A stretch of 64,000 nucleotides of DNA from Moniliella sp. 'wahieum' (GCA_003971905.1 RSEE01000052.1:434001-498000); one strand, 5' to 3'; positions 1,850-57,633 are shown, counted from the stretch's first letter. A program made the numbers and translations. The notes: a model not told the origin generated them from the letters alone.

Positions 1850-2120
1850 CCGGGTGGCTCGTGTGTTTGACCATTGAAGGTCACTTCGGTCCCTCTCTTT
1901 ATTAGGCCTCAGGCCTCAGGCCGCAAACCGCTTACGGTTCCCTTTTGTTTCTCTCTCGCTTCTGGTCCTCTTCGTTCCGCAGCATAGCCCCTGGTGGAGA
2001 CTGCTGCCTGCTTGATGCCCATCTGTAAGTGTTATTGAGTGGATTTGACCATAATAATCGCCACCAATAATGCGATTTCATGACCCTGGAGGACCATCAA
2101 GACTTCAGGGAAGTCTCATC
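1850..2120. repeat. Dispersed degenerate repeat, homologous to 20705-20930 inside the gypsy relic
   Basis: Colinear shared blocks GGTGGCTCGTG, GTTCCGCAGC(A/T)TAGCCCCTGGTGG, TGCTTGATG, TGCGATT, GAGGACCAT and GTCTCATCA occur in both copies. Confidence 0.8.
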
Positions 2121-3739
2121 AGTCCGGTTGGGATTCCTTTTGGTGAGGTGTGCGTTCTGATATACACCAGGCTAAGCCAAGGTTGTTCGCCAGATCGCCA
2201 CAGGAGACCAAACAGACTTACACCTTCTTTTCTTCGCGTTTGGTCGATATCCACAGCACCATGCGGATGCAGACGCAGTCGTACGCAGACTGTGGCGAAA
2301 ACAGATGGATGAAAGCAAGCAAAGGCGGAAACGGAAGCGGGGTCCGGTCCCCGGTCCGGGCAAAAGTAGCCCGGAACCTGTGCCTGTGCGCCCAAGGGCA
2401 TGGCATGGGACAGAAGAACGAAGCGTTGTCACATGCATGTCACACAAGGCACGCATACTCGGTCACAAACCATGACCTGTTTCTTACCACCTGAGGTAAC
2501 CCGTCGGTCACGGTGACCACTGTCACATGTCACTAGTCATAGTCACTAATCATTAATCACTACAGTAAGTCAAGTGACTATTATGTAGGTGAAGCCCAAA
2601 GAAAGTGGAGCACGGCATAGCGGGACTGGGTGCTGGACACCCATGTTGGTGCTTGTGGGGAGAGAGAACACGTTTGTGGAGAAATACTCAGTCCTCAACG
2701 TCTCAACGTACTCAGCAGTGTACTCAGACTGGACTGTGGGGTCTGAGTTAACTGAGTACTTAACGTCTCAACAGCTACGTTACTACTTGTGTACGTTTAT
2801 ACAGTGACTAGTGAGGCTATTATTAGTGTGGGACTAATTGTAAAAACACGGGTGATCGAGATCGCCCCCCCCCCCCCCACCACCTCTGTCTCGGCCCACC
2901 TCTCTCAGATCTCAGATCTCGAGCTTTCTGCAGTTTAGTACTAGTTACTATAGTTGTGAATTCGACAGGAGTATATATCCCCGGTGTAACATGTACCAAT
3001 CTTGTGGACCCAAACTTCACACAAAGCTCGGCGTGTGTGGCAAAAAGTTTTGCTCTCCAGGGATCCCATGTCCCACGTCACAGTGACTAGTGACTCCAAC
3101 CAGGGTGACATTGACATCCTACCACCGTCAACCCCATGATCGATTACCTGGACAGATAGAGAGGAGACGAAAAGGATATCCACAGTGGGAGCAGAGGCAA
3201 AACTATAACTGGCGTGAATCGGGCCAAATACATTGCGGATCTGCATATCTCAACACACCCTGCAGTAGGGTATAAGTCCAGGGTATAATTCTCCTTTTTG
3301 GACTGCTTCGCTTACATACGCAAGGGTAATGGTTTGGAGCAAGACGATACATTTCCGTACTATACCCCACACACCGCAAGACTTCTTCACAGTTCTATAG
3401 ACGGAGCGACACCAACCTCGAATATCATGCCCGCATCTCTATCCAAGGATGCTCGTCCCGGTCGCTGCGGGTCTTCGTGCGCTCCTACCCCTCATATGTA
3501 CAGGTCTTTTCATGCGATATATATCCGAGCAATCATGTCGGTCTTCATTAATAGTCTGTATCGTCTCTATCTATAGCTATAACCTGTTAGAGGGTAGTGC
3601 CAGGTTCCCTTGCACGGCCCTCAATGGATCGTTGACGCTCGCTTAGTAGCTGGGCGGAAGAGTTCTGCTCCCAGGCCGCGCACGCCCTGCTCGCTCCATC
3701 TCCCTCTCTCCTCCTTTCCCTTCCCTTCAGACGTTGCTT

Positions 3740-4290
3740 GAAGATTTGTGGCTCACCACTTTTCCTTCACGCCTTGTCTGAAGGCTGCTTTGCAGCTGAT
3801 CTATAGGATTGCGAGTGCTCCCAAGTCGCACTCTAGCATAACCCTCTTCTCGATCCGCAATTGTTCGATTGTTTTTTTGGCATATGGTACTCTGAAGACA
3901 GTATAGAACACAGAGGCTCTCCTGTGTACTGATGTTGATGTACCCCAAGAAGTGATAGCCACACCGTAGACATATGTAGTATATATCAATAGTAGTATAC
4001 TTGTGCATCGTACTGTGGTATAACAAACACACAAGAGCCGTTGTGAGTAGATGTCGAAGAAGTTGAACGTCAGTATAGGATCCATATTGAGCGGTCAGAC
4101 AGTTTTAGAGCCACCCTATGAAGCTGAACAAGCTGCAGCTCTGAATATGACGGAGGGTAGAAGAATCCTAACGCAATACGGTCAAAACAATTCTCACTTT
4201 TCTTATGCAGGACACACAGGGGATATATATATCCAACATGCTGCATGTAACAGTCCGCAGGCAGTGATCAGCAAACAGAAGATGTGAGCG
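3740..4290 (-). mobile_element. Possible highly decayed Ty1/copia RT-RNase H relic
   Basis: Minus-strand pieces in copia order: GLLHAA (cf. GSLMYA), YTD (cf. GYTDAD), YGVAITSW (cf. GGAISW), QLRIEKRVMLECDLGALAIL (cf. ELG..P..LYCDNQGAIAL). The match is weak and judged by eye. Confidence 0.35.
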
Positions 4291-5160
4291 ACCACCCAGC
4301 CCAGTGAGATACGGAAAGAATGGCCAGATGGTTAGCGTAAGGAAACCAGAGGGATTGATCAGGAGAATTGAATGAGAGACATCAACTGAACGCGAACAAG
4401 AGCAAACTGGGACAGGGAAAAAAGCGATATGTGCGAGATGAATAATTGTGGGGATTGGAGAAAACTTATGGCAATCGGCGACACTGCATCCATATCTATA
4501 GCGTCCCCAACATAAGACTTAACTATATGGGACACAGAAACGCGATGCTCTCCTCCATAAGCTGCTCGTCCGACATTTGCACACTTCCTTCTCGCGGAAA
4601 AAAGGAACAGGACCAGATGAATAAGGCAAGTGCAAAATTAGGGGCTCACTACAAACCCCATAAAGTGTGCCAAGCCCTTTTCCCCTTACACTGAGGCGCT
4701 GCATGACGGGCGGCACCTTATAGAACATGGGTACTTCTGTCACAGTGGGGCGGCGATTAAGTCGCCTTGCACAGCCACCCCTCCACCCTCCACTCCTTTA
4801 TCGTCTCTCTCTCCTCTCGCTTCTCGGCTTCTCTCCTCCCTGTCACTATTACTCAAGTTCTCTATCTTTCGTCTTCATATCATGACGACTTGGGATTCTA
4901 GGTCTATATCTACAAAACCCGCAACAAACGTTTCTCTCTTCTCTGCGCTCGCGCTTGTCTAAAAATCCAAAACACTCTACATATGTTTCGACTCGGTTTC
5001 TCGCCTCGTTTCTCATCTTGGTCCGCTTTGCCCTTGACCCTCGCCTCATCTCTCACTTCGTGCCGCTCACATGCTTGGTCCTCACTTCTTCTCCTTGACT
5101 CATTTCCCCTTTTTTCGTTGTAGACTTGTTGCTCTTTCCTTTGTTCGCTCCTTCGAATTC

Positions 5161-6105
5161 ATATCATTGACTGAGCTTAAGGCTGGGACAAGGGAACGCT
5201 ACGTCTAAACCAAACCGTTCATCTTGGGGGTTACTTGGAAGCGCCACTAAGGTCAAGGAACCAGGGGATCGCCAATATAAAAAACCTGATTGTTCTTAGA
5301 TTCGTCAATTGTGAAGATGGCCTAAGCCGCCCACCAATATTTGCCCCTCTTCACCCTTCTTTTAGGCAAACTCCACTCCTGAAGAACCACCATCCCCATC
5401 AGTTTGCTTCCCCTCCCTCGCCCATCGGAACTGACCGCTTTGTCGTCCTGCCCCTAGCGTGCAACCTCGTCGCAGACGCTGCCCAGTGGCTCTGCCCGAC
5501 GAACAGCAAAGCACTATTACTCGCAACCCTCCTATTATGTTCACGCCAGTGTTCCTTGGATTTTGGATCTGAAACGTGTCCAGTCCTCAGTGAGTCTTGT
5601 CTCCGATGAGCAGGGAAACGGTCTCCGCCTGGAAAGCCAGCAACCCCGTTACGAGTACCCCTTCAGTAGGAATACACAAAAGCACATATGAGTGGTGGTC
5701 ACCGCGTTCCATCTTCTCCGTTACACCCGTCTCGCACATATCGAGCCAGGACGATGAGTAAAGCACCTTTCTGAAGCAGTATCCGTGTCGGAGTTAGGGA
5801 ACGATGAGATGAGAACAATCGAGAGGTAAATACGTCAAAAATTTCTTACCATAGATGCGTCCGGTCTTTCAAAGTCTTTCCTCCAGACCACCTTCTTACT
5901 ACAGCTTTTTTCGGCCCTATAATAGTAGTTAAATTCTCGTGACGATTCTCTCGCCATCATATCAGACCAGCTGTCTGTTGCCTATATCATTGAGAAAGCT
6001 TAAGGCTGGGACAGGGAAACGCTACTCCTAAACTCACCCGTTATCTTGCGTTGTGTTACTTGGTAGCGCCGCCAATGCTAGGAACCAGGGGGATCGCCAC
6101 GATAT
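5161..6105 (+). repeat. Pair of degenerate ~120-bp direct repeats (5161-5278 and 5984-6105)
   Basis: Both copies read ATATCATTGA..AGCTTAAGGCTGGGACA..ACGCTAC..CTAAAC..ATCTTG..GTTACTTGG.AGCGCC..AGGAACCAGGGG(G)ATCGCCA. Confidence 0.8.
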
Positions 6106-6141
6106 CAGGGCCCTTAGGTGCCGCCATCCGGTCCCGTACCC

Positions 6142-6220
6142 GAGGTAGCGCATGTGGACACGGATGAACGTGGTAGACATCAGAGCGAGGGACCATTTCC
6201 ATTGAGATTCAACAGTAGCC
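6142..6220 (-). repeat. Dispersed repeat; inverted copy of 16341-16416
   Basis: The reverse complement shares the exact run GATGTCTACCACGTTCATCCGTGTCCACATG, plus flanks CTCAATGGAAA and GCTACCTC, with 16341-16416. Confidence 0.85.
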
Positions 6221-6759
6221 AAATCCTTCCAGCTTCCTGGCCGCTATATACTGTCTTGTGCCGTAGTATTCTCCCGTCGTCAAAACCAGGGGAGAAAACG
6301 GCTCTTGAGTGCGTCTCTGTGATACTTTTCTTGTAGCATTCTGCTTGTTCCACAGCAGCTGAAGCAGCTCCTTCTCCCGGCATTCCAAATGCGTTGCGGT
6401 TCTCTCGTGCACCACCCTCCGATACGCGCTCTGTGCTTCCAGCGATCCCGTGTCGCGCGCCGTGTGGTCCACCTCCATTCCAGATCTCCTCCGATTGCTC
6501 CAGGCCCCATCACGCGGTAGACGGTGCGCTGTGCCCTCCACCCGCGCCTCGTCCCATCCTCATCCGCCACGGTAGGTTTCGTGGACGTGGGGTTATCAGG
6601 ATTTTCATTGCATTTGCAAAAGACTGAAGACCTCAACAACCGCAAGGCGTGCTCCGTTGGCTCGGACCAAACCTCAATATAAAAGCCTCACGCTTATATT
6701 CACTCTCTTCACACAGAACTACACTGGTGTGTTATACAGCTGCACCATACGATATTCCA

Positions 6760-7920
6760 GTTCAACATACGCTCAACGTTCAGCGTACTCAACCGAACGT
6801 TCACCCGCGTTCAACGTTCAACGTTCCCGTTCAAGCTTCAAGGTTATTCAAGCTTCACCGGCTTCACCCTTGTAGGACCCTCTAAAAGCAATCATTATCA
6901 TGTAATCACTTTCATAGCCCTTGTTTTGCTTGTCTCTACTGAGTACTGATATAGATACTGATGCATGATGGTAGAGAATACATGAGAGCCGTTAAAAATA
7001 TCACACAGGCACACTGTTCGGCCGTATCCCATCTTGCACCCCCCCTCCCAAACACATTTCACCATCCAAGCATTTTCAGTCTTCCCATCAGCCGTAAGCG
7101 CGTCAGCCTCAAGCTGAGACGCTGAGGCCTCACAGGCCCCTCAGGTACTCAAGCTTCAAGCTTCAAGCTTCAAGATTCACTGTGCATCACCTCCTTGATT
7201 CAAGCACCGGACGTCACATGCGTCACAGTTCTTGCCAGGGCCATATGTTTGGCCATTCCCATATTTTCTCCGAGAACTCAACTGGACTGAGTCTCAGTAC
7301 TCAGTCTGAGAGTAGTACTCAGATTGCGTACTGGTAACGGTAACCGGTAATAATGTAATGCACAATGAGAGCTTTTGAGAACTGAACTCACCTGAGCAGC
7401 ACGGAGCTTTTGATATTGCGCGCTCAGCGCTCACACAGGCTAATAAGCGCGCTGAGCAACGAGCACAGTGGCTCCCATTTGTATCCCTTTGTTCACACCC
7501 TTGTGACGCCTTCCCGTCACATATTGTTTGCTTGTGTGTGCGCGCTTTCCACTGAAGCACCTGAAGCTTGAAGCCTGATCGATAAGATGAGCAACGCTGC
7601 GACCGAGATCAGACCGGGATCCTCTTCAGGGGTGACCGCTGAGGCCGGTGATGCATGATGATGTGCTGTGTACTGGGGAGTCGGGTGCTGAAGGTGGGAG
7701 TCGGGTGCTACGAATGAGAGAAATGAGAACCAGTGGTGTGCTGACGCTCGAAAAACCACTGCCCAGCTCCCTTTTTGTGGTTGCGTAGAGCCGAAATTCA
7801 CACGGGGACGAAGCCGTTTACCCGGCGCGCTGTTACTTCAGTGGTTCTTGGGACTCGGTTTGTGGAGTTAAGCGCGCAAAACCTAAGGCCTAAGTACCCT
7901 AAGTACTAAGTACTCATTCA
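6760..7920. repeat. Tract rich in period-7 palindromic micro-arrays
   Basis: TCA-ACGT x2 at 6811, TCA-AGCT x3 at 7149-7172, TCA-GTAC-TCA at 7294, TCA-GCGC-TCA at 7424, TAA-GGCC/TAA-GTAC at 7884-7916. Confidence 0.9.
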
Positions 7921-8896
7921 AACGAGACCAGTGCGCACCGACGGGACCGAATGCATAACTAACAGAGGTGCTGCCGCTTTGGCACTAATGCATGATGGGT
8001 TATGGCCTGTTCTATGGCCACCACTTCGTTCTAAAGAAAGCACAGCTTTTTCTTTATTAGGATAGGATGCGGCCTGTGGCCAGCCATCCGAGGGTTAGAA
8101 GGGGAAAAGGTATGCCCTGGTATACCCCTCGAGGACTAATCATGGCATCGGGTCCGACACAGTTCAACGAGATCTGCGTCAATATCATGTGTAGGATTTG
8201 CTTGACGCATGAAACGCACAACCCTCTCCTTATTATGTTAAGCGTGTTCTAGTTTCGTGATGAGAGATACAATAGTACCTTCCATTTCCAGAGGCTATGC
8301 ACTATGAGGGGCCGGGAGAAGGGTGTGTTTGATTACTGCAATATCAAGAGCTGTAATATAGCTTTGGTTCCCTACTACTACCACAACTCCTTTCTGCGGT
8401 GAAGCTGACTCTACGAGTCAGTGACTGTCTTGTGCTCTTGATAAAATTTCCTTTCATTGCTCCCTCTCTATGGCTGGAAGGGGATGACCCCCCCATATGT
8501 CGGGGCCGTGGAACGGATACCAACAACCCACACACATGCGTTTGACCCCTCCCACCCCTCACACAAAATTCACCCTCAATGAATCAGGCACTACAATAAT
8601 GATGCGATGATAAATCCATGCCAATAAGAAGCGAGAGATAAGACCATAGCAATAGTAGAAACTGAAAGAAGAAAGGGAGATACGCGAGGCCCGTTGACAG
8701 GCAATAAGGACATAATACGTCAAAATCGTCGAATAGGGAAGGGGGAGGGCTAAGGGAGGGGGTATGCTAACAGCGAGGAAGCACGATTGGCTTCTCTTTC
8801 TCGCTAGCACAAGCAATACAATGGCCCATGAGAACACATCAGTCGTATACAAGGACGTTTCTCACGTGAGTGTCATGCGGGCGTGATGGGCGCAGT

Positions 8897-10313
8897 TCAC
8901 ATGTGTTGGGGTTGGTACTGCGACGGGCGGGGAGGGAAGGGCATGCCGGGGGGTACACTTTGCGCGGCACTACGGGGTAGGCCCATGTCCGGACTTATCC
9001 CCGACGGAAGAGGGGAGCGAACGGCTGTCTGCGGCGAAGGCAACACCGCAGGTCCACGGGACAGGGCGGTGGTAGAGGATTGTCTCAGACCTGTATGGTT
9101 GTTGGTCGGCTTGGCAACGCGCGACGTGGCCTTGGGCGTCGGAGCCGCGTTGGAGCTATTCTTGCTCTCGTCACCTGCGTCGTCAGGCTGGTATGCAAGC
9201 CACTTGGCCTTCTGCTTCAAGATTTTGCTCACAGTCGAGCGCTCGACGTTGAACGCGGCTGCGACGTCAGCCTGGCGCATCTCAGGGTTGATCTCGGCGA
9301 ATTGACAGATACGCTTGCGGGCGGCGCTATCGATCCTTGCCTTGGGCCGCTTCTGGGCCATAGGCAGCGCAGGGACCATCGACGAGGCTCCCTCGAAGAA
9401 AGGGGGGTCGGGGAGGCCCTTGCGCATGCCTTGAGGGCCCATGTACCGTGCGTCGGGGGCAAAAGACATGGCCCGTTGGTCAGTGCGTAGGACCGATGCC
9501 CCAGGGTGATAGACTAAACGCTGCACGCCCGCCCGGGCATCAAAGGAGGATCCATTGGGGTCGAGCAGGCCGTAGTGTTCACCCTGATGACCCTCCATAT
9601 TGGTACAGGTTGTTGGGATGAGGCATGAAGCCCCGCTCGCCGTCTGGACGCATCGAGGGCACAGACGAGGGAGGAGTAGGGTAACTTGAATCAAAGTGGC
9701 CATATGTGTTGGGATAAACGTGTTGCTGGACCTGCTGTTGCTGCGCGGGAGGCTGGGAGTGCATCGCGGGTTCCTCCATACCGAGGAAAGAGGGGTGGGA
9801 AGGCCATTGTATCCACGTCCTGAGCTGACAGGACTCCATTCTCCACCAGGGGGAAGGTTGCGGGGCATACTACCGTCTTCGGAAAAGCGACCACCTTGCT
9901 GCTGAAACCATAGGGGTCAGTCAAACGCTGATGCTGGTTCCATTCGAGTGATGGGTAAACAGGAGAAAATGGAACGTACCGGTGCTGAAGTCATGTCCGG
10001 GCGGAAGGGGGGCCGGAACGAAGGGGGGGGCTTGTTACCAGGTACATTTGTAGGTTGAGAAAAGGGTTCGCGCGAGTCGAGCATGTTAGAGGGCACATTG
10101 CCTCCGTGCTGGACAGGATAGCCATTGTTCCCGCCCAGCATACCCGAGGGGGTGGAGCGGAGGGAAGGAACAGCAGTGCCCATGTTCTAACATGAGAAAG
10201 AGAAGGTATGGGTCAATGACCTGGTACACATACAACAAATGATAGCAAAAGAGAACCATTTTACCTACCGGTGGAGGTGCTTGCTTCACAGAGTCGGTCA
10301 TTGAGAAGGACAT
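8897..10313 (-). CDS. CENP-B/pogo-type N-terminal HTH (psq-like) DNA-binding protein; spliced; no DDE domain seen; 3' end uncertain
   Basis: HTH: KARIDSAARKRICQFAEINPEMRQADVAAAFNVERSTVSKILKQKAKW. Exon 1 (10313-10269, 15 codons), intron 10268-10187 (GTAGGT..TTAG), exon 2 (10186-9980, 69 codons) and intron 9979-9902 (GTACGT..TTTCAG) splice in frame into the 8897-9868 ORF. Confidence 0.82.
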
Positions 10314-10889
10314 GGTGAATAAGCTGGCAGGAAGTGGGGACGATGCCGATCACAAAAGCGATGGGATTGGTGTGAAGACAGTGGCTGGAAGTGAAGCAGG
10401 GGAGTGTGACCTTGGGAGTGTGAAGGCGTCGGATTGCGCAGACGAGACCGGCGAAGCTGACGATGATGGAGGTGTGAAGGCAATGCCTGCGGGTGGCGGC
10501 GAGAGGGAAGGGAGGGGCGCTGGATGGACGCAGAGAATGAAGAGGCGTACCAATAAGCGACGGGCTTAAGAGGTGGTGGCGGGGGAGAGAAGAGAAGCGG
10601 AAGGGCGAGCAGAAGCAGATAGAAGGCAGCTGGAAGTGGAAACCGTGGCTGGGCTATATCGTCCACCTGTGGGCATGTTTGTACCTGCGGGACCTAGGAT
10701 CCCTGTAGGGGGTTATATTGCTGCCGCAGACTGCCCAGGGTCGCTCGATTGCAGGGCCGAGGCAGGGTTCAAGAGGGTCCATCCAACCTGCTCGGCCGGC
10801 GGAGCAGGGTACTATGCATGGGGCCAGATCCAAGACCAGATGCCGACCAAGTAAGTATGCAACCCTGTTGGACGAGAGCAGAATCGACA

Positions 10890-13800
10890 GCCCATCGATC
10901 AGATCGATCATCATGCGTCCCGTACCCCTCGATCAGCGATCTGGGGTCATCGAGTCAACGGGGTCATTGGTCCATAGGCCTCTGGCCTTAGGCCTTAGGC
11001 CTACATCGAGCTAGAAGCTTGATCTTGAAGCTTGACGCCGATAACGCGTAACATTAACATCTAAACCAGTGGTAGTAATCGACACCAAACTGGCCATGTG
11101 CATGATGCATGATGCATTGATGGCTCTTCCAGCCTTCTCAGGCCTCAGACCTGCGTGACGGTCTCGGCCTCAGACCTGCCTGACGGTCTCGGCCTCATCG
11201 ACCGCATCGAACAACGATCATCGACATCATCATGCATTTGCATTCAAATGGTACCGACCAGCATTGCCATACGCCCTCTGCTTCTCTTGCCACTAGTAAC
11301 CAATGGTCAATGTGACGGACATTGATTATCACACATCAGGCCTCAGGAACTAGTCAAAATCAATATCCAACTAGTCATTTTCACACACACCCTGTCACAT
11401 GTCACATGTCGCTAGCTTTCCAGCTTCGCCCAAGTCACAAGTCACTTCATACTCATCACAAGTCACTAGTCCTAGTCACTTCAAGCTTCAAGCTTCCACC
11501 GCCAGCGTCACATGTCACACGCGTCACCTTCGACACGTTCAACGCTCCTCTGCCGGTTCAGCACCTGAGCGCTGTGGAGAGGCTCAGCGTTGAACGTGAC
11601 GCGTGAGGCCAGCGGCTCTGGATCTGAGGCCCAGAGCCCCACGTTGAACCAACCGTACCAGGTTTAACTTCACTACTCGAAATCACTAGAGTCACTAGTC
11701 ACTCTAGTCACTCGTCACTCTAGTCACTCGTCACTCTAGTCACTCGTCACTAGTCACTAGTCACTAGTCACTCCTGTTTACTGATGTGATCTGGTCCTTG
11801 TCACATGGGGATCCGTCCACGTGTTCAACGTGTAATACTCAATGCTCTCCTCTATAGGACATGGAAGTAGGAAGAACGGAGGGGCACTGCTCTCGACCAA
11901 GTCGATGGCAGAGGCCTGTCACATTGTTACGTCACAAATTCCTAGCCCAGGCCCCATGCCAGGCCGTCCAAGCGCTCAAGCTCAGGCTGAACGTTGAACC
12001 AGGCCTCAGGATGGAGGTAATTGGATACCAACATCTATACGTCTCATTAAAATTGGATACTTTCGCGGGCGCCATACACAGGTGTTCGCATCAGGCCTCA
12101 GGGATGCCTCAGTCCTCAGGCGGGGGGACGATGATCGCGTCAAGCATCCATTATCGTTTGGGAGGCAGGCCTTAGACACGCACTCTTCGTGCGTAACATG
12201 TAACAAGAAATGCCAGGTATGGCCTGGTATATTGGCCGGGATTAAGGATTGTTGGCGCTGGTCGCATACCCACGCCTATCAAATTTTGGTCATCGGTCAC
12301 CGGTCACCGTAACTAGTCAAGTTTCAAGCAGTCACCCCTGTCTGGGCGCCCCGCTCAGGCGCTGAGCAGCTCACCAGACATGTCACCATGTCACCACTGT
12401 CATCTACCGCGTCACAGTCACTCGCGCTTGCGACACCTTTCGTTTTCATCTCTTCTGTGACATGTGACATGCGAATGTGAATGTCGAATCCCCGACTGAA
12501 AATGTGGGATGGATACTTCTCACTGACTGATCTCTCAGTCTGAGATCTCAGATCGGAACATGTATCTGGAGATGAGATCGGAGATCTGAATCCCACGTAT
12601 AGCGCGTAGCCCTGCGTAGCCCTGCGCAGCCCTGCCTATATAGCCCCGAGTACCGAGTACTGAGTATCCCCACACCCCCTTCTTGCAAGCGCGGAATCCA
12701 GAGTCCGCTGCAAAACCCTTCTCTATACCCTACTTTTTGTCCTCGAGGCCCCTCCATATTGTTCCGAGACTGTACGACAAAGAAAAACAGTGTCCTCAGA
12801 CGCTCAGGCGCCAGATCAGAATGCTCGTGCCGAATGCCCGCCGCAGTATATATACCCACACCGCATATCAGTCAACACATTCCACAGGGGCATACACAAA
12901 CTGAAAGGCGTATGTTATCTCGGCGTGTTCTCGCACATTTAAAGGAAAAAGTCACTGAGGTACTCAGGCCTCAGGCCTCAGACTGAGGACTGATGACTGA
13001 GGGCGAGGGCTATGAGGCTGTCTTCTTCGTTTCGGTCCGCATCTCTCTATAACCCTACAGGAAAGCTGGAGACGCACATTGCGCAAACATCGTACGACTA
13101 ACCTCTACAAACCCACCGAGACCATATCGGCAATCGACAACCGTCCAATGCTTCGGTCGTCCGCGGACTTTGAGCGGCTCAACACATACATAGACGAGGT
13201 CGCCGGTCATCGAGGTCATCGTCATCCGCGTCATCGATCATCTCGATCGTCGGCCCGATTCAGAAGCTAGCTAAGGCGCTAAGGTTAGGCCTAAGGCGAG
13301 CCTAAGGCTTAGACGTTAGACGTTAGACCTAAGCCTAAGGCCTAATACTGGCAGCGAAGAGTAACTAGTAACTAGTAAGCCTTTATTATTGGCCCACACA
13401 TGTCTCAGCTCATCCTCCCAGTCACATCCTGCAGCGTCCTGTACTAGCACACTCTGTGCCGTCGCACACACACACTCTGTCGCAGAGCGCTGCGGCCAGG
13501 ACACCTCAGGCCTCAGGGCCTCAGACCCTAATTATATAGTCACTCACACACACGGTCCCACCTGTGCCTCCCATCCCCGCAAGATTATTAGCTCAAGCCA
13601 GCGCCCGTTCCACTCATACTCATCGATGATCGATCAACAGAGGTAGACATATATACCCGAAAAGTCCACCAGCTTATGTAGCCTTTGTGTGTATATATTC
13701 GAGTAGCTCTCTCTATGGCAATTATTCCCGGTATGCGTTCCGCGTTACGGGCAACCGGTTACCGGTTACCGGTTACCGCATACACCTTTTCCACAGTGCA

Positions 13801-14850
13801 AGTGCTACTAAGCTTCGCGATTGCTGTGCACGCTCGGGTATAGACGTCAGGCAGGCCTCAGGCTGATGCCTCAGGCCCTGCTGAAGGAGGAGTGGAATGG
13901 AGGATGTGGTTCTGAGGAGAGGTACAGGAGATGAGAGGGGGCCTTATATAGACGAGGGTACCGCGGAGCTGAGGAAGCTTCCGGGCGGATAAGAGGGGTG
14001 ATGACTATCACGCAGGATGGCGTGATTGGGGCATCGCCCCAACAGGCCCCTCCTCAGACCTGAGTCGCAGAACGTGTTGGCCAAAACTTGGACGCGTTTT
14101 GTGTTGACCCATGAAAAATCCCTTCTGTAACAAGTTGCCCAAAAATAGCTTCTTTCTCTACTGACCGTGTTCTACGCTCCTCCAGGCCCGTGGCAGCTAG
14201 CTGTCAGTAGGTGCAGCGCATCATGGTGGGGGACCCCACCCCAAAAAGATATATGTGTAGTGAGTGGATCGGGTGTGGCTCTCCCCTGTCAGAGGGATGC
14301 CTAATGCAGCTGGCGCGCTCTCAGATCTCAGATATCTAAAGCGTGTATCATGCATCAGCGCTCAGCCTGAGCATCATAAGAGAGGCGGCTCTGTTAGGAC
14401 TTCTGAAGGATCTGAAGCTTGAAGCTTCAAGAACTGTATAACGTTGATGCCAGTTACATCAACATCATATTAGTACTTGAAGTTATAATAGCAGCAAACT
14501 ATTCTTACTGCCTGCTGTGCTGCTCTTGGGCACTGTGAACATCACGCTCGTCATGGATTGGCGCACAGTTTTGTGAATACGGGCATACCGTGATATCAGT
14601 GACACTAATGACGTGAATCGCGCGTGCGCGTGACCGATGACCGGTGACCGGTGACCAGAGAAGAGCTTGAAATGATCTGTGATGCATTTGTGATGTGCCA
14701 ATTAAAGCGTGCTTCTGACCGGTGAAGCAAGCGATTGTCGGACACGGATGCTATGTCTGAGGTACGGTCTACTGTTGATACGGAGTGTACATCGAATCTC
14801 CCTCTTAATATATTGACATCTTATGCGTTACGCGTTACGCTTACTGGCAA
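10890..14850. repeat. Densest tract of period-7 palindromic micro-arrays
   Basis: Examples: TGA-TGCA at 11103, (TCACTCTAGTCACTCG)x3 + (TCACTAG)x3 at 11699-11767, TCA-CCGG at 12297, TCA-TCGA at 13231, TAA-CTAG at 13362-13378, TTA-CCGG at 13759-13775, TCA-TGCA-TCA-GCGC-TCA at 14348-14364, TGA-CCGG at 14631-14654. Confidence 0.9.
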
Positions 14851-16403
14851 GCACGCCCGGAGCTCTCATTTACGTAGTTGTCCTAGTAGTAGGAAACGTG
14901 TGCGGTACAGAAGTGCTACCGACGTGCATGGGATTGTGCTCGGAACACAACAGAGGGCGACCCTCGCTGGTATAAGTTACACGTTCCAGGAGGGCACATG
15001 AACAACAAGATCAAAATTCCCGTCATTAATCATTTCGTCGCCATTAGGTCCATGGAGTAGGACAACAAAAAACAGGATCATACAACAAATACAGCGCATG
15101 CTCTTCTCTCTTGCTTTTCCTTCAAAGGAGATATATTACGCACAGAAACTATATCAGGGGTTCATCAGGTTGTGTGGGCATAGGAGTGCTCTGGAATAGC
15201 CGTGCCTCTACTTTATCCATGTCTCCCAAAAGAATGTACAGCCTTGACATAACAAGGGTCTTACACAACATCTGAAAGGAAGAAGTCAGGGAACAGAGAA
15301 ACGCGAGATGAAGCGCGCAGGGGGTGTTCAGCCTCTGACATCGGGACTCCTCCCCCCCCCGCTAAGCGAGAATCGCCAATCCATTAACTTGAGGGCCATG
15401 CAGGGGAAGGCTAGCACTTATGCCCTCTCATAGAGCGTGTGGTCGACCAAAATTCCTCCCGTTCTTCTATTTTTCTTTTGGAGCACACTTTTACTATTTT
15501 CTTCCAGTGTGGACGATGTTGTGCAGGAGGGATTTATCGAACAGAAAAGAGTCTCACGACGCTTCAGGGCGGTTTCATCTGCCGTTTCCCGTTGCAGTGG
15601 ACCCCGGGTCAGGCTTTTGTGGCTCTTGTTTCCCTTGATGCCCGATCGAAACGTCTTCACTTTTGCGCGACCATCTGTCAGATCAATTTGGACCACATCT
15701 CAAAAAGTTTTCCTCAATTTAATTGTCGGCCAGGCTCCCACATCATCATCAAGCCTCAGGACCACAACATGGGGATGAACTTCATTGAGGTTGAACCAGC
15801 GATAAACTTCGTGTATACATAGACATACAAACAAACACGTCGCATATCCATGATAATGATCTGATGGTGGGTGTCTCTCGTTCTCTGTCTATCAACACAG
15901 TGACACAGTGTTACATCATGCAGATGAAATGCACCGTTTATTATATACGACTTTCATGGAGCCTCTGTTGTGCTATTGGGCTCGGCGCTCCCGTGACAGG
16001 ATGTGGCTATAATATAGCTCCGAGAAGCGATCGACACCGGGAGAATATGCAGTGGGGGGTACAGTAAGAGGCCTTTTGGTGTAGGGCTATGCAGATGTCA
16101 CTAGTATACATGTATAGAGGGGGGAGTAGGGGAAATAGGGGGATGACTAGAATTTTGTACCGTCTCACGGTGCAAGAGACAGATGTTTATAATAGTATGG
16201 AGTGCATCTAACATCATTATGGGCGTGTTTTGGGGGCCCTTCTCTGAGTGTGCCACGCATTTTTTTCGGTATTACTTGCAACCGTTCCATAGTTAGTGTG
16301 ATTGAGCTGATCTGACAGTTGCGCTAGTATAAACTATTAGACTACTGACTCTCAATGGAAAAAGGTTCCTCGCTCAGATGTCTACCACGTTCATCCGTGT
16401 CCA

Positions 16404-22416: not shown

Positions 22417-22448
22417 TGATGCTGTGATGCTGTGATGCTGTGATGCTG
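22417..22448 (+). repeat. Octamer tandem repeat (TGATGCTG)x4
   Basis: Read directly; it decays into TGATGTG variants up to about 22475. Confidence 0.9.
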
Positions 22449-27851: not shown

Positions 27852-31721
<3,870 letters not shown>

Positions 31722-49318: not shown

Positions 49319-50666
49319 ATGGCCCCCGAAGCGGTCCAGGACATTGAGGCTGAGTTCCACGGCCTCCATGCCCCTCCGCGCCCCCGCGCTGTAGGAAACG
49401 AGGGCAGCCTGCGGCGCCACCTTGGACACTCCGACAGCTGTCTGTCGAGCGCGCCGGAGGACAAGACCTCCCTTTCCTACGTCTTCGCTCGGGACTGGCC
49501 GGGGGCATCGCTGGTGTGCGGCCAAGACGAGTGTCGCTCCGCTGGATCGCATCAAGATCCTGTTCCAAGCGCGCAACCCTGACTTTTCAGCGTATGCCGG
49601 GCGCTGACTGGGGTCGTGTACGCGGCGAGGGATATTGTGCAAACGCAAGGCGCTGGTGCCTTGTTCCAAGGCACAGTGCCACCTTGCTCCGCTTTCCCTC
49701 GCTGCGATCAAATACATGGCCCCCGACAAGCTCCATTTCCTCCTCATGCCCACCGAGGACAAGGAGACTCGACTCGTCTCTTCCTCGCTGGCTCGGCCTC
49801 GGGTGTGCTCTCCGTCTTGTGCACCTACCCGCTCGAACATTCGCGTTCGCTTGGCGTTTGAAACCAAGCGCCACCATCGCATGGCGACCTGCTCCGCATC
49901 GTCCGCACCATCTACGCGAGGGCTCTACCGCCGCGTCCTTTTAGGGTGATGTGCGGAAAAGAGACAGGTGCACATACCGGCCCGTGGGCACACCCATCTT
50001 CCTCCCACCACCGCTGTCCATATACCAACAGCACGCATGGTCTTCTCGGCCGCATCCGCGCCCACGTTTCCAGGAACGCACGTACCAGCGCCCAGCATGT
50101 CGTTGGCACCTCGGGTCTCCGGCCACCTCCATCCAAACATACGGCTGTCGCGAGCCAGGAGATGTGACTCACTTCCCCCTCCTCAAATCTATCGTGGCTT
50201 AGCGTCACGGTCATGGGCATGATCCCATACGCAGGCACCGCGTTCCTCGTCTTTGGCCGGACCAAAAACGGGCTCCATGCGTATTTGCCACGGAGAACCG
50301 ACGAAGGATCCAACCAGCAAGACGGTGCAAGATCTGGTGGCCGGCGGTATTGCTGGAGCCATCTCGCAAACGGCTGCCTACCCATTTGAAGTCATTCGTC
50401 GATGCCAACAGATCGGGGGCAAGACGAGGCCCACGGAGCTAGTCGGGAATTGGCGAAACGGCTCGATGGATTTATCGCACGTCGGGCTGGCGCGGGTTTT
50501 ACGTTGGCTTGAGCATTGGCATGTTAAGGTGATGCCCATGACGGCTGTCAGGTACGTTCTCCCTCTCACTTTTCCTCCATCTGCTTGGCGAGGGCTAGCG
50601 CTAACCTGCCGATTTCGTCTTAGCTTTACTACTTGGCTGGCAGTGAAACGCCAGATGGGCATCTGA
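49319..50666 (+). CDS. LEU5: Mitochondrial carrier, Leu5-like CoA transporter (intron near 50552-50622; frameshifted)
   Basis: [102 protein letters not shown]. Confidence 0.85.
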
Positions 50667-53600
50667 ACGTTTAACCCGTTGCATTGGCCCCCTATCGCCA
50701 ACGAGAGGTCCGAGCATGTGGCCACCAACCAGCTATATAATACGCACAACCCGGTCGATCTCTGCATTCCTTCGCGCGCTCTGCCCTTGCCATGGCCTAC
50801 AGCAGCCCACCCTCGCTGACATGTTGTTCGCTTGAGGACACGAGGCTCTGGACACGCGCCTCACTCCCCGTCTTTCCCCCTGTACTGTACGGCACTCCGC
50901 CCTGGCGGTACCCCCCACCTTGACAAGCAGACCAGACATCTCGTGTCAGTGTACTTTCCTCCTGGGTCATGCTTCGCTTGTCTTCTGGACACTGCAGGAT
51001 GGGACATTATAGGCATGAACCCATGACCGTCGGGCACAGCCGTCTTTCCTCACTTTTGTTTTACTGTGCACCTTCGTTCATCGCTCACCTTGCACCGAGA
51101 GGGGGTCTATAATACACCGTACTCACCAGCGTCTTCAGGGGCCGCAGCTTCTTATACTTTGATTGCATATTGCGTTGCACCACGCAGATTTTTTTCGTGC
51201 CATCTTCCTTCGGATGGTCAGTTTCGTAGGTAACCAGGGGACAGCTTTGTGCTAGGTTGAAAAAACGTGAAACAGGGGAGGCACGGTGCGGGATCAAAAC
51301 CATCGACCCCGGTGGCCCGGTGGTCAACGGGCCAATGGTGGAGAGAGACGGAGAGGAGGCTTTCGGGAAGCTAGTACGAATCTCGTCAAGCGGGTGCAAG
51401 ACCATTCCCTGGTGGCCCCATCATTTGCGCCCATCATTTGCTAGGATACCTGTCGTTGTCGCTCTGCGCGCCACGAACGCCAATCCAACAAAACCTATAT
51501 GACCTTGAACAACTACTAAGAGATTCATTCTCTGCCACGCGCGATTCCTTATCCCTAGGGCGTGTTTTCCCTCGCCGTTAACTGGGACGAAAAACATCAA
51601 GCAGTGCAAAGCGCCACAAAGTCAGCACCATCGGGGTACTCAATTCTTCTGCCACGGCGCGAGCTGATTCGTCGTCCAACACAGCTCAGGACGCGGTACG
51701 AATCCATTTTGACTGAGCCCAGACAGTTTCGCTTCTGAGGACGAAGCTCGTTGCTGTGGCTCAGAGGTCCAAACTCACTTCTCGGCACAACAGGACAACT
51801 TGCGTACGATGCATGCCCCTTGCTCACCTCGGTTGGCTACTGATCGTGCAAGGCGTGACCGACTCGACGTTCTAGCAGCTCGCAGCTTGTTGTGCTTCTC
51901 TGCAGTGCGCGAGCACCTCACCGTCGCCAAAGGAAATGACCACCGAACCCACCACTGCGCCCGAACGATTCGCAACTAACTATGTTCACGAGCGTGGCGG
52001 ATTGATTATGGATTGTGAACTCACCGCGATGATCTTGACTTGTCGCCGAACGAGTTCTCTTCGTCATGAACCAGACCACCACAGAGGCACCTCGAAGAAA
52101 ACCGTGCTGCCGCAGCGGCGGTAGCCCGTACCACTCTGCAGGAGGCCAAACTGGTGGCCAAGCACACCGTGCGCATTGCAGCCTTAATTGATTTTGGCCG
52201 CGATCGCCACGGACCGTGATGCTCGAGTATGGTGGAACGGCCGCGTCTGTGAAGCTACTCGGACTGTACTTAGGTGTCAAAACTCCAGCAGTCCGAGGGT
52301 ACGTCGTCCCTGGCTAGAGTCAGGCCGAGCCAAGTTCATGCGCGAGGGCGACGCGCTGCGCGCTGGCATCTGGCGGTTTCTGCGCGGGATGAAAGACCTG
52401 ACGTGATGACGGTGCCGTTATGCCGTAGTACCCGTGCACTGCGTCTGATACCCCAGTGTCGGTGCCCACCGTGTGTTGGGTCTCGGGCTTGTTAGCAATC
52501 GTTTGCCTATGCTCGCACCCAGGCCAACGCGGCCCCCCAGACTCATGGTCTTGCACCTGGTCGTCGACACATGGCCTCCCTGGTGTACTTGGTCCCCATA
52601 TTGATGCGAGAAAGGATGCGCTGTGCCAGTTAACCAACTAGCGGGGTGTTGGTTCATCGACGCTCTGCTGCTATCGCTTTCCGAGAAAACCACAGCACTG
52701 CCCGGGTCGACTAACCCGATCGAGGGCAAGCGGGCCCGAGTTTGCTCGCTGGTTCCTTCGAATTATGAACCTGTCCCGACTCCGACGCCGGTTTTCGCTA
52801 CAAAGCAATGCACTTTCATTCCTGATTCACTTACACCTCTCTGGGGCCGGGAGTGGACTGTGCCCGCCGCGCTACGACGATTGCGGCTGCGCGGCACGTC
52901 GCGTCACTTGAGTTTATGGTGTGTTTGGCGTATGGGGGAATGCCGTGTCTTCCCTCTGGCGCGGTAGTCGACAACAAAAGAAAGTTGAGACAAAGTGTCG
53001 TGTTGTGTGTGGCAGTCGTCGTCGTATAGTTGCCCGTTCTTTTCCCACAGACTAATTTCTTCTCTATGTTCCCTCTTTTCCAAATGTCTTTTGTTTTTTC
53101 TCTCTGGCCTTGGTCTTGGTCTCGCCTCTCTTTCCCCCCTTCCTTTCCCCTCTTCGTTTCTTTGGTATACTACACCTACAATCTCACATACTATCTGTCA
53201 CGGGCTGTACGGAGCTCACCCAGGTTTGTGGGATGCAGTCCCTTTTAACACGGAAGAAGAGACTTCCGGTAGTTTCGTGCTTGAGCTGCCACAATAGTTG
53301 TTGGATCCGAGTGGGGCTCGGGACAAGGAGGTTGGTTTCTCGGCGTATGTAGTATTGATCGTGGATGAAGCCTTCAGTGGATTTTCTCATCAGGACTTGG
53401 GCACGCGGAGAGGAAGCTGGGGCTGGACTGGGAAAGGATTCAGCGTGGAGAGGCCCCGCGCCGTATTGGGGCTGGCTCCCGGGGCTAGTGGTAATCAAAT
53501 CTCTGGAAATCGGCAGGTGGTGAACAGAACAATGACAGAATAAGAGTTGGTGAAAATGAAAGGCGGGGAAAGATCCCCTCCCACATCACCGGGGGTGCCA

Positions 53601-54065
53601 GCTATACTCGATGATCTAAAAGGGAAAATAGAAGCAATAGAAAGCTAGGAGGGATTCACGGCGTATAAGAAACTAATATGGGAGACGGCGGCTAGTGGTT
53701 GTGTCAGTTGATTGAAGAGTGGAGGGAGCACGAAGTCGAGCACCAAGTCGAGCACCAAGTCGGACAACAGTTTGAAGGCAAGTGATTGAAGCCAAAAAAG
53801 GTGAGCACCGGAAAAGAGACCAAGCAAAAGCTACTAAGCAAGCCTCAAGCAACGTAAACGCCATCGAGTGAGTTACTCTATCTTACCACATGCATCACAC
53901 AGCTCATGCAAAGGACCACAACCGCCCGCTGCAAATGCATTCGCTGCTTCACATGTGCATTGATACACTAAGTGCCCACCCCCGGCCACTTCGTCCGGGC
54001 GGGAATCGGGGTGACAGGAGTGCATAGATTGAGCGTTCAGGGTTCAGAGACTGAGACGTGTGTAC

Positions 54066-54089
54066 TGAGTACTGAGTACTGAGTACTGA
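54066..54089 (+). repeat. (TGA-GTAC)x3-TGA period-7 palindromic array
   Basis: Read directly. Confidence 0.95.
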
Positions 54090-56219
54090 CAGTCCACAAG
54101 TTGAACAATGTTGTGGTGGACGCATATGAAAGAAGTTGCACGGGGATATCTGTTACGGGCGCGAAGGCGGGTGGCCCGCCGCGAGCCCATCCTTTCCCCT
54201 AGTATCCCTTGCCTGGGTTATAGGTCTACGTCAAGACTAGTCTCAATTGATTGAAGTTGAGAAAACCCATACGCTCCATCGTGTCCAAAAGGGAGCATGC
54301 TCCCAAGACCAGATCAACGTTCACATCCCTTTCGTACGGCCGAAGTGGTCCATGCGTGTGGTTCTGAGTCCCTGATCGTACTAGTTATCCGACTTCACAA
54401 TGAGTCTTTGGTATTTGATTCTTGGACGCAAGTGAGTGCTAAGCTGAGCCTCCGGACCTGCACGTCAGCTGCTTCTGATGTGAGTGTCTCGATTTCGTTG
54501 GGAGACTCTCCCCGGCTCATGCCTTTTTTACGTTTCTAGTTGAGGGCGGAGAACCTGTCATGTACCTCGGGCATTTCCGGTTTGACTGTGTTCCCATTTC
54601 TGGCTGCGAGGGAGTGTTTTCCTCTTTCTCCGTTGGGTAGTTGTCTATCCCTTAATCCTGCCTGTATAACCCTTCATTCATGATCCTTTCCCCCCAACGG
54701 TTCATTTCTTCTTTTCCTTCGTCTTCTTCTTCTTCTTCATCTTAGTCGTTCGCGCTTCATCCCTTCCTTTCGCCTTTTGTCCCTGTACAACATCCTTTGC
54801 CAATTCATCCCCTTGACCAATCAATCCACTCTCATGTTACTCTAGTTCGCCAGCAGTCCTACGGACCTACTGCTCCCAGACGCCACCTGTTGGTTTTTCG
54901 GTATTCTTTTTTCGATCGGGCATCCACATTGCGGTCAATATCTAGCGTTCAGTCTATACTGTCCACGGATCCGGCGGCCATCATACAAGAGTTGTGAATG
55001 GTTCTGTCAGACAGAACTTGTCCTACCTGCTCCCTAAGGACTTGTCCTACCTGTTCAACCTTTTGGCCAACCCTTCAGAACCACGGACTCCAAGCACGTT
55101 AGTCCCGCTCGTTCCGGTGCATACGTATAACCTTGCCGCACGTGTCGAAAAGTACTAATGTCCCAATGAAGAGGCCTCGCCTCGTCTCTAGCGAGCAAGA
55201 TTCGGTTGGATCTTCCAATAGTGTTCCGGCTCGATCAACCATGAATAGCCAGTGTATATCCCTCAAGGAAATCAGACCCCTAAAAGCTATGGTTCGGGCT
55301 CGAGTCCGGGGCCCGCCCATGACAGTATCGGAGTGTTGTGTTTTTGATTCCTCGGCCAGAGGTATGAGCCAGGGTGAGATCGGCGAAGCTTGGACCCATG
55401 CCCCGTCACGGAAACTAATAGCGAACAGCAGTTGGATCTATTATCATGTCTGCAACTTCCATGATCGGCCATGCCGCTGATGGCAAGCACAGAAGGACTG
55501 ACTGCAATTTTCCGTGACTCGCGTGCTCCAGATTAGATATGGCCGCGTCTCGTTCCCCTCCTTCCTTTTCTCCCTGTTGCACGGAAGGTCAGACTAGCGT
55601 CACGAGTTTACAAGAAGCTGTAGAAGACTAGTAGTGTGAAGGCAGTTAATTGGGTATTGCATTGCACATGAGCCACAGATGAGGCTAGAAACTACTCTTG
55701 CCCTCCAGGAAGGAATATTGGAAGAAATGAACCGGAAGGTTCCGGGCTTGGGCTTCCGTCGCCACTACACAAGTACGGCGTCACATCACCACCAGCCCAA
55801 GGACGCTAGCGACGGGTTTCCCTCAATCTCTCGAGCTCAATCTCCACCACAACCTATATAGGCACGGGAGTGGCCAGGTGCGGGGAGATCCGGGATATAG
55901 GACCCAGTCGCGGTCACGCAGTGGCTCCAGGACCTTGTATCCCAGGCTCTTGGTGCGGAGGTCGGAACGTTGTCCACACCCTTGACTGTTTCCGTCCTGC
56001 ACAGCGCAAATCGTCCTTGCTTGGTATAGCGTGAAGCTAGCCACTTGTCAGTTAACCGACGTTAGGCGTTGACGGTCACCACCTACCCGGCTCCAAGTTG
56101 TCATTAATCGTGGGCGTGACCGATTTACCGCGCTCGCTCATTTTGATCGCTCTGTAACTAGTAAAGCTTAAAGCACCTTGCCCCGCCCCCATTCTTTCGC
56201 CCTGGAATGGCGAGCGGGG

Positions 56220-56640
56220 TTCAAGACGTTCAAGTTTCAAGCTTCACTTTGATCAATGAAGCCTTGGAGCTGGGAAGCGCAGTCGGGGGGTTCGTCTCAG
56301 ATCAGAGTTGCGTGTCTCAGATCAGAGGGGATGGTCTCAGACTGTCATCGGTGACCGGTGAGCGCAGAGTGTATTAAGCTTTGGGCGTTGGGTTACGCGT
56401 TACGCGTTACGCGTTACGGCAGGGGAACAGTGAATTAGTGAAACGTGAAGGGCTGCGAGGTGCCGGGCTGCCACTGTGCTTTGCAGCTGCTCTGGAACCT
56501 GCTGCCAGGTGCCACTGGGTGGAGTGTGGATGTGACCCGTGCACGCAGGAGCGCAGGAGCGCTGTGGATGACATCATGCATCATGCATCCCCATCAAATT
56601 TCAAAGCTGGTCTCAGTGTGGGATCTGAGATCGATCACAT
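56220..56640. repeat. Cluster of period-7 palindromic micro-arrays upstream of the Zn-cluster gene
   Basis: TCA-AGCT-TCA near 56237, TGA-CCGG-TGA near 56352, (TTA-CGCG)x3-TTA at 56393-56416, TCA-TGCA x2 near 56574. Confidence 0.9.
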
Positions 56641-57633
56641 GCATAGTGGACCGGCCACCTCCCGGCCACTAGGCACTCCCGGCCACACCAAGGCGCCCGC
56701 GACTCTGTGCCACCTGGCCACCCGACCAGGGATGCAGGAATCGTAGGGTTGCTCGTTAGCAGGGCGCAGTCTGGCGGAGTGGTAAGGCTAACGTCTGACA
56801 GGGACAAAGCGCCAGAGGCTAGACCGGAGGGACGGTCGAACGGAGGAGGTACATAGCAGGCCACCCAGTCGACGTGGTTTGTTTTTTTATTGCTGAGATG
56901 TGAGATCTCAGGGCGGAGTACGGCGTGACGACTGGGTACGTAGCGCACAAGGGCTACAATCAATACAGGGGCGGCGTTGCGTGGTTGGGACTGGGGGGCA
57001 GCGTGCACAAGGCCAGGGCGGAGAAGCGGCAGGTATAGCCGCTGAGGCGCTGAGGATGCGGCCACTAGCTCCCTGTGTGAATATTGAATGGGGATGGATG
57101 AGAGGATGGATGAGGGTACATTGATGTGGGGACGGTGGCGGAGGGTGGTGCTGTGGGATGCATGTGATGTGGCTGGGGTGCCTGTGATGCATGTGACAGG
57201 AGTGAGTAACTAGTGACATGGTGACACGGGACAGCGGCAGAGTGCTGGTGAGTGGGCGGCGTGCGATTCACAATGCTGGGCAGCTGCTTGGGAGCGTCCC
57301 GCTTTCGGCTGCTGGCTGCCGCGTGCGCGTTGAGGTGCTAGCCGATAGGCGCTGCACGTTGGACGTTGGACGTTGGACGTTGGGGTGGCGACACACGGTG
57401 TACTCCGAAGCGCAACCCAGCGTGTCGAGCTTACGCTTGAGCGTACGCTTGACGCTTCTTGCACACCAACCCTACTGCGCAACACAGCCCCCCAGCAGAT
57501 CGTACATCCTCCCCTCCGTCTTCCCTCCGCTCCGCCCCAGGCTGCTGGACCAGCACGCCGTCTGAGCATCAGCCAGCACGCCCACCCAGCAGCTCGTCCG
57601 CCGCCATCCGCTCCCCCCCCCACCTTCTCCGCC

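Follow-up and report, generated by a model that had tools for sequence, protein, structure and literature searches.

Period-7 TNA and palindrome arrays in basidiomycete non-coding DNA as probable excision footprints of a DNA transposon

Hairpin formation on the flanking DNA, followed by footprints sealed through end joining, has been described for hAT elements (Hermes), Transib, RAG1, and a Mutator-like element (passages of PMC5499845). In Candida, budding yeast, and plants, the footprints of Ac/Ds consist of short deletions and palindromic (P) insertions, each palindrome having the complement of the neighbouring base at its centre (passages of PMC5873905). Within the literature searched, 7-bp target duplications in fungi are reported only for two groups, both from basidiomycetes: hAT7 in Pucciniales and Kyakuja in Agaricomycotina (sections of PMC12730594). 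Here we analysed a stretch of 64,000 nucleotides from Moniliella sp. 'wahieum' (GCA_003971905.1 RSEE01000052.1:434001-498000, hereafter the window), in which the word TNA (T, any base, A) recurs every seven bases around 4-base palindromes. We consider it probable (about 0.7) that this pattern consists of densely packed footprints from the excision of a cut-and-paste DNA transposon that is absent from the window.

Palindromic cores between TNA words

A first-pass annotation of the window had pointed to arrays of TNA words enclosing self-complementary tetramers, and a word of this kind is present at all 18 coordinates that it gave. Across the window, the core is self-complementary in 107 of 229 TNA-NNNN-TNA words, which compares with 14.3 expected if cores were uniform and with a mean of 8.4 (standard deviation 2.9, maximum 20) in 200 block-wise dinucleotide shuffles. 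For the window, the enrichment of palindromic over non-palindromic cores that the annotation anticipated is therefore confirmed. The 107 words group into 76 loci. Among the 15 other XNY flank classes, only 5-43 cores are palindromic out of 159-698 words each (about 3-9%, and about 6% for the 15 together). The excess is likewise specific for a core of four bases, with palindromes in 25 of 114 words at core length 2, 6 of 148 at length 6, and 2 of 127 at length 8. It is also specific for the spacer, as 29 pairs are separated by a single base compared to 1-3 pairs with spacers of 0 or 2-5 bases.

The periodicity is equally distinct. Among periods above 3, period 7 is the commonest in the window: perfect arrays of at least 17 bases number 23 at period 7, compared to 5, 5, 14, 1, and 1 at periods 4, 5, 6, 8, and 9. 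Perfect period-7 arrays with a length of 14 bases or more number 51; of these, 34 are built from a 6-bp palindrome plus one base (10.4% expected by chance), and this palindrome has the form A....T in 32 of the 34. The autocorrelation of TCA/TGA reaches 155 at lag 7 versus 46-100 at the remaining lags between 3 and 21, a peak that had likewise been predicted. The range of cores proved wider than the 13 of 16 palindromic tetramers first noticed, a count that did not include AATT, ATAT, and TATA. In fact 15 of the 16 occur, some of them rarely (AATT 2, ATAT 3, TTAA 2), and only TATA is absent. The pattern of TNA words with palindromic cores is thus real and very strong.

Structure of junctions and period-7 runs

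The spacer base within the two TNA words is repeated directly (x=y) in 87 of the 107 words and complemented (x=y') in only 9. This indicates that the TNA words are direct repeats, as a duplication predicts and a fold-back copy does not. The extent of the repetition was assessed in every maximal perfect period-7 run containing a palindromic-core TNA word (n=73). Most frequent are run lengths of 12 (17 runs) and 13 bases (15 runs), with further peaks at 19 and 26-28 bases; lengths of 7n+5 or 7n+6 account for 44 of the 73 runs, while 10 bases are found in only 3. The ends of the runs are phase-locked: 22 begin exactly at T, 23 stop exactly at A, and none begins at x. At least one end reaches two or more bases past TNA in 62 of the 73. 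With lower-case letters for single bases and primes for their complements, the commonest form is TxA-ef-f'e'-TxA-ef (14 runs), and its exact mirror form was found in 6 runs.

The bases that form the inner part of the core have a defined source. Among all 5-mer direct repeats lying two bases apart, taken without conditioning on palindromes, the spacer of TNAnn repeats corresponds to the reverse complement of the final pair of bases in 58 cases and to that of the initial pair in 5; for nnTNA repeats, the asymmetry is 51 versus 1 in the opposite direction. The inverted bases are therefore always supplied by the pair that adjoins the point where two 7-mers meet (cd-TxA-ef/cd-TxA-ef). The flanks match as predicted in 77 of the 87 palindromic junctions with the same spacer base, where about 12% would be expected by chance: 32 junctions match both flanks, 26 the right pair, 19 the left pair, and 10 neither.

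The same numbers bear on the possibility that TNA plus palindrome is maintained by selection, as a binding site or as a structural or chromatin signal, and is recognised by a factor or through the shape of the DNA. A rule that is conserved while the sequence varies, and words that lie in non-coding DNA, would suit such a signal. However, the core is dictated by the two neighbouring bases in 77 of the 87 junctions and the right-hand and left-hand forms are about equally frequent, which argues for a mutational origin; furthermore, the density of words peaks in a 21-kb stretch without recognisable genes. We therefore regard selection as very unlikely, and the structural or chromatin signal offered by the first-pass annotation found no support, given that the core sequence is set by whatever adjoined the site.

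Further evidence comes from sites at which more of the duplication is visible. Ten 16-mers consist of a whole 7-mer, two P bases, and the same 7-mer again (Table 1), while the 15 control flank classes pooled give four (10 of 62 versus 4 of 1916; Fisher p = 4e-13). Sites of this type would be expected if a complete 7-mer is duplicated and the inverted bases are inserted in addition. Where the full duplication was kept, the P addition is one base long in 9 sites and two bases long in 11, a single 3-base addition occurs in none, and three further sites carry one added base from each side. Plain 7-mer duplications without any addition number only 9, six of which fall within one (ATTTCAC)7 array. 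The footprints contain no constant element-derived bases, as is expected where hairpins form on the flank.

The targets of 63 single events could be reconstructed, and their logo reads c-s-T-S-A-s-g, with C or G as the centre base in 52 of 63. Complementary bases make up the inner flank pair in 21 of 63 targets and the outer pair in 14 of 63, compared with a chance of 1 in 4. There is thus no real palindromy in the targets beyond T..A, and the palindromic cores are therefore a product of the process, not a selection from palindromes that already existed. TNA itself is symmetric about its centre, as for the target of a dimeric transposase.

A TNA word, four bases, and a second TNA word with the same spacer base also resemble the order duplication, footprint, duplication, and canonical Harbinger elements duplicate three bases (sections of PMC12730594). 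The cores might then be the two terminal bases of each inverted repeat of a PIF/Harbinger-like or CACTA-like element with a 3-base TNA duplication. This is hardly credible here, as 15 different cores would demand as many families, the cores co-vary with their flanks, the 10-base run structure is rare, and whole 7-mers are duplicated. Other duplication lengths were also considered. The 58-versus-5 and 51-versus-1 asymmetries, together with the duplicated 7-mers, rule out a 5-base duplication with P bases of the Transib/RAG type. Two sites were inspected by eye for a duplication of 9 bases with Ac-like complementing, which does not hold at 7212 and agrees with only one side of 6853; this model was rejected. 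A motif consisting of an isolated odd palindrome was dismissed as well, its enrichment outside the arrays being only modest.

From these sequence signatures we infer integration, hairpins, end joining, and the family of the element as follows. The element would integrate at nnTnAnn with a 7-base stagger, so that the 7-mer cd-TxA-ef is duplicated. On its departure, both flanks would be sealed into hairpins precisely at the duplication boundary, and host enzymes would nick these hairpins mostly two bases off the tip, leaving two P bases as f'e' after ef or as d'c' before cd. End joining would usually retain the 4-base overhang of one flank and trim the other, resulting in cd-TxA-ef-f'e'-TxA-ef or its mirror. 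The commonest product would be TNA, a 4-base palindrome, and TNA, a scar of exactly 14 bases with a net gain of 7; less often, the entire second copy would be retained to give 7-mer, two bases, and 7-mer. The first scar would hold the perfect odd palindrome f'e'-TxA-ef, and a revisit would yield the identical sequence whatever the outcome of the repair. Arrays of the type A-core-T plus x would lengthen by one identical unit with each further visit, possibly also by slippage. If the outer site is visited instead, the new unit may have a different core, derived from the other flank, as in the compound array at 2521-2559, where the CTAG core fits ef=CT, a pair that is seen only one unit further on, past a unit short by one base.

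The first-pass annotation had suggested a lineage-specific repeat-generating process involving fold-back DNA. Its fold-back component agrees with cores that are inverted copies of two flanking bases and would need a hairpin; its proposed fold-back or template-switch synthesis on doubly symmetric seeds does not, as the targets are not palindromic beyond T..A and the whole 7-mer is duplicated.

Replication slippage on heptanucleotide microsatellites, with palindromic units favoured through hairpin formation, could also produce period-7 arrays. Arrays of up to four copies do exist, and adjacent units mostly share their core (18 versus 3 cases). In addition, a 50-base (ATTTCAC)7 array demonstrates that non-palindromic period-7 units can reach this length as well, whatever the route. 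However, slippage presupposes two complete units (14 bases) or more and would end in any phase, whereas 32 of the 73 runs are 12-13 bases long with phase-locked ends. It also leaves unexplained the specificity for TNA, the sites with 7-mer, two bases, and 7-mer, and neighbouring units with different flank-derived cores. As the origin of the pattern, we thus consider slippage quite unlikely.

Distribution in the window, genes, and metagenome contigs

The palindromic-core words are concentrated in two gene-poor stretches (Table 1), which together hold 96 of the 107. In the gene block between them (22901-50500), the density drops to 0.33 per kb. Both gene-poor stretches (1.9-22.9 kb and 50.5-57.4 kb) have a GC content of about 50% and almost no recognisable coding sequence, while the GC content of the gene block, which adjoins the ~21-kb stretch 1901-22900, is 56-70%.

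Table 1 Coordinates of the gene-poor stretches, arrays, duplicated heptamers, and transposase-like remnant in the window
Feature	Position	Strand	Details
Gene-poor stretch, pattern-saturated	1901..22900		79 of 107 palindromic-core words, 3.76 per kb
(AGGCCT+C) array, first of the finding	1904..1922		19 bases
Single site keeping P pairs of both sides	2427..2444		TGTCACA TG CA TGTCACA
Compound array, cores CATG, CTAG, TTAA	2521..2559		CATG and TTAA repeat in inverted form the left flank pairs beside them, TG and AA
7-mer + 2 P + 7-mer	6853..6868		CTTCACC GG CTTCACC
Perfect array (AAGCTT+C)	7149..7174		26 bases; begins exactly at T, stops 2 bases into core
7-mer + 2 P + 7-mer	7212..7227		CGTCACA TG CGTCACA
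7-mer + 2 P + 7-mer, within compound array 7882-7914	7889..7904		CCTAAGT AC CCTAAGT
Decayed pogo/Tc5-type transposase remnant	8900-9916	minus	339-aa open frame, CENP-B_N helix-turn-helix; few relatives carry HTH_Tnp_Tc5 or CENP-B_N
7-mer + 2 P + 7-mer, P bases copied from right-hand copy	11697..11712		AGTCACT CT AGTCACT
Perfect array (ACTAGT+C)	11746..11772		27 bases
Two overlapping 7-mer + 2 P + 7-mer sites	13205..13235		GGTCATC GA GGTCATC; CGTCATC CG CGTCATC
Perfect array (ACCGGT+T)	13754..13778		25 bases
7-mer + 2 P + 7-mer	14402..14417		TCTGAAG GA TCTGAAG
7-mer + 2 P + 7-mer	18514..18529		TGTGACA TG TGTGACA
7-mer + 2 P + 7-mer	18560..18575		GATCAGA TC GATCAGA
Array (AGTACT+G)	27648..27667		20 bases; gap between flippase C-terminal open reading frame and convergent SMC C-terminal open reading frame
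Perfect (ATTTCAC)7 array in gene block	31898-31947		50 bases, in-phase TCA, non-palindromic core CATT; longest period-7 array of the window
Array (AAGCTT+G) in gene block	39606..39624		19 bases
Second gene-poor stretch	50501..57400		17 palindromic-core words, 2.46 per kb
Perfect array (AGTACT+G)	54062..54089		28 bases
7-mer + 2 P + 7-mer	56219..56234		GTTCAAG AC GTTCAAG
Perfect array (ACGCGT+T)	56392..56418		27 bases

The gene block (~23-50 kb) encodes a flippase, an SMC protein, a PP2A B56 subunit, a tubulin-like fragment, a CUE-domain protein, and a WD40+UCH (PAN2-like) protein. The window is eukaryotic DNA. The best named matches of the flippase fragment are from Tilletia horrida and Tilletiopsis washingtonensis, with 77% identity over about one-third of the query, and a further record matches at 88%. 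These similarities indicate that the host is a member of the Ustilaginomycotina, basidiomycetes. The annotation had mentioned TCACGAN-type heptamers from Ustilago; no verification of these was found in the literature searched, although the host does belong to the same subphylum.

Arrays also occur in the gaps of the gene block, as the annotation had stated. The array at 27648-27667, for example, lies between a flippase open frame ending at 27485 and an open reading frame for the SMC C-terminus at 27855-28370 on the minus strand. The further remark, that no arrays had been noticed in coding exons, was checked roughly, by way of Pfam stretches and open reading frames, as a classifier based on GC at third codon positions was too weak to decide. 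None of the six gene-block loci falls within a matched Pfam domain stretch; the locus 44947-44956, however, sits inside a long open reading frame that carries a CUE domain elsewhere.

Several other repeats were noted. In the stretch 1901-22900, where the CENP-B_N remnant is the sole Pfam match, internal repeats are short and diverged (e.g., 16498-16680 versus 20941-21133, 79% identical). The open frame carrying this remnant is a decayed pogo/Tc5-type transposase amid a footprint-rich stretch. A run of about 14 C at 2866-2879 lies just upstream of an AGATCT+C array at 2903-2920. At 11136-11197, a 25-base tandem repeat (2.4 copies, 94% identity), whose unit holds CCTCAG-type words, is a larger duplication laid over older scars. 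Outside the gene-poor stretches, two period-7 arrays, (AGGGACT) and (TAGGGAT), abut at 61544-61577; the second resembles the telomere unit TTAGGG plus one base, and a plain 7-mer duplication centred on TTA is scored there as well. A hexamer/18-mer repeat (CTTCGG/CTTCTG, ~20 copies) at 60784-60904 within the long open frame 59604-61367 on the plus strand is probably a repetitive peptide region.

Metagenome contigs were scanned with one 19-base AAGCTT array, which matched at least 121 loci. Pooled over the loci listed, the other TNA-N4-TNA words are palindromic in 140 of 2053 cases (6.8%), compared to 5.9% of controls. This lack of enrichment suggests that the rule is not general to DNA carrying such an array; contigs elsewhere generally have the AAGCTT array without other palindromic cores, which is a further point against slippage. 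Two environmental contigs independently share the multi-core rule. On contig L001 (8591 bases, 44% GC), 11 of 45 non-AGCT words are palindromic (p = 4.6e-5) with seven different cores, and five right-hand junctions with two P bases as well as one site with 7-mer, two bases, and 7-mer are present; none of its open reading frames is recognisable by Pfam. On contig L083 (619 bases, 51% GC), 3 of 4 words are palindromic, including a compound array of GTAC and AGCT. Their independent occurrence also speaks against an artefact of sequencing, amplification, or assembly. Such an artefact is extremely unlikely, given that the effect is also TNA-specific, templated by the flanks, and, as far as the rough check of coding status goes, confined to non-coding DNA.

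Candidate elements and comparison with known systems

Several observations weigh against an origin by excision. The density is very high for footprints: 95 junctions of the window fit the model, and in the two gene-poor stretches (27.9 kb) a recognised footprint contains 153 of 1521 TNA sites. Ten palindromic junctions lack any flank match, and the sharing of cores by adjacent units (18 versus 3) also fits array growth by slippage; this ratio allows repeat visits and slippage alike. Three scans of the 64-kb window for inverted termini enclosed by identical 7-mers detected no element bearing terminal inverted repeats between copies of a 7-base nnTnAnn duplication; apart from arrays matching themselves, they yielded only one weak pair, which lies between CCTCAGG words (12969-13875). 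Nor was an element with an nnTnAnn duplication found among the 121 metagenome loci listed. Pfam searches of 14 + 86 + 27 open frames of the window revealed no hAT, Mutator, KDZ, Harbinger, or other fitting transposase domain, the sole transposase-like open reading frame being the pogo-type remnant at 8900-9916. Self-BLAST and a repeat search of the window returned nine short diverged repeat pairs, none overlapping an array, and no paralogue-based empty site. Finally, the palindromes here are even and lie on the edge of the duplication, while Ac/Ds palindromes have the complement of the neighbouring base as their centre (passages of PMC5873905). The single-base complement signature is not enriched (5 complement versus 15 other changes), so a canonical hAT of the Ac type fits imperfectly. 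The pogo/Tc5-type remnant itself was rejected as the source, being unrelated to a 7-base duplication.

Could the breaks have arisen without a mobile element? A domesticated transposase or other nuclease might introduce 7-base staggered, hairpin-capped breaks at TNA, with repair duplicating the site and adding P bases. The domesticated hAT transposase Kat1 is reported to make hairpin-capped breaks in yeasts (PMC4763223). The very high density of footprints and the lack of an element in the window or in the related metagenome loci would also be in line with endogenous breakage. However, a whole 7-mer duplicated beside flank hairpins is the product of integration followed by excision. Moreover, a staggered cut with fill-in gives plain duplications without P bases, of which there are only the nine mentioned above, six of them in one array. 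To our knowledge, no nuclease making such breaks acts genome-wide. An endogenous origin thus appears unlikely.

Taking the scars as products of integration and excision, we classify them as candidate footprints from the excision of an element that forms hairpins and duplicates 7 bp, for which hAT7-like or Kyakuja-like elements may serve as leads only. PMC12730594 supplies consensus sequences but no hAT7 target sites, and in the parts searched neither a target consensus nor footprints are given for hAT7 or Kyakuja; footprints are not a topic of the MuTAnT paper (PMC4486113). As a rough estimate, footprints would form, per base, at a few per cent of the rate of point substitution, an estimate that builds on scars being recognisable only while about 12 bases stay unmutated; the process would then be a major source of insertions.

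A broader scenario, which we put forward tentatively and hold to be possible but doubtful, is that one lineage of a hairpin-forming transposon with a 7-bp duplication has long been active, hopping locally, and is the chief origin of insertions into non-coding DNA in this lineage. By serial visits it would create heptanucleotide microsatellites of palindrome plus one base de novo, its scars would act as self-reinforcing landing pads, and the offset of hairpin opening (mostly two bases) could be read from the sequence. If the reading as excision footprints itself holds, 28 kb would hold a readable record of about 100 transposon visits, from which the target of the element (nnTSAnn), its duplication length, and the geometry of hairpin opening by the host could be obtained without experiment. 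Microsatellites would in this case be born by insertion and excision rather than by slippage, and there would be firm sequence evidence that non-coding DNA can consist largely of transposon scars. In repeat annotation, such arrays will be listed as simple repeats and their origin overlooked; developers of markers should reckon with changes in steps of seven bases at such sites.

The mechanism is of a known kind, and its unusually dense and regular form is new. Literature searches covering Tilletia and Ustilago repeats, footprints, footprint-born microsatellites, and heptamer motif words yielded no description of the TNA and palindrome pattern within the library searched.

Like Ac/Ds, the putative element has a symmetric target with T and A; the consensus of the Ac family is nTnnnnAn. 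The duplication of hAT Ac/Ds is 8 bp, whereas the duplicated unit here has 7 bases, and the footprints here are far denser and more uniform and form tandem arrays. Common to Ac/Ds, Hermes, and this locus are the kept duplication, short deletions, and flank-derived palindromic P bases at the joint (passages of PMC5873905 and PMC5499845). hAT7 and Kyakuja share the 7-bp duplication and a basidiomycete host with the pattern (sections of PMC12730594). However, they were described in subphyla other than the Ustilaginomycotina, and no matching transposase or termini were seen in the window.

V(D)J coding joints, made by the Transib-related RAG, also show even palindromic additions from the flank end, with a hairpin at the exact boundary that is opened off-centre. 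A 2-base hairpin opening is typical of Artemis. The geometry of RAG/Transib is thus closer to the pattern observed here; nevertheless, the target duplication of Transib is 5 bases, and this difference in length (7 versus 5) rules Transib out.

Bacterial intergenic heptamer repeats (STRR and the Xanthomonas GGGAATC repeat; PMC4692102) are similar in forming period-7 tandem arrays in intergenic DNA, but they have one fixed unit per family, lack the TNA and palindrome rule, and reside in prokaryotic hosts; they are unrelated. Non-coding DNA filled with short direct repeats through insertion and imprecise excision was proposed by Bendich and Rogers in 2023 (PMC10319768), a proposal that concerned the spacers of ribosomal DNA and rested on weaker evidence. 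The scars described here lie outside ribosomal DNA and have a defined target, a defined duplication length, and P bases that can be tested statistically, and would thus provide a sharply testable instance of that idea.

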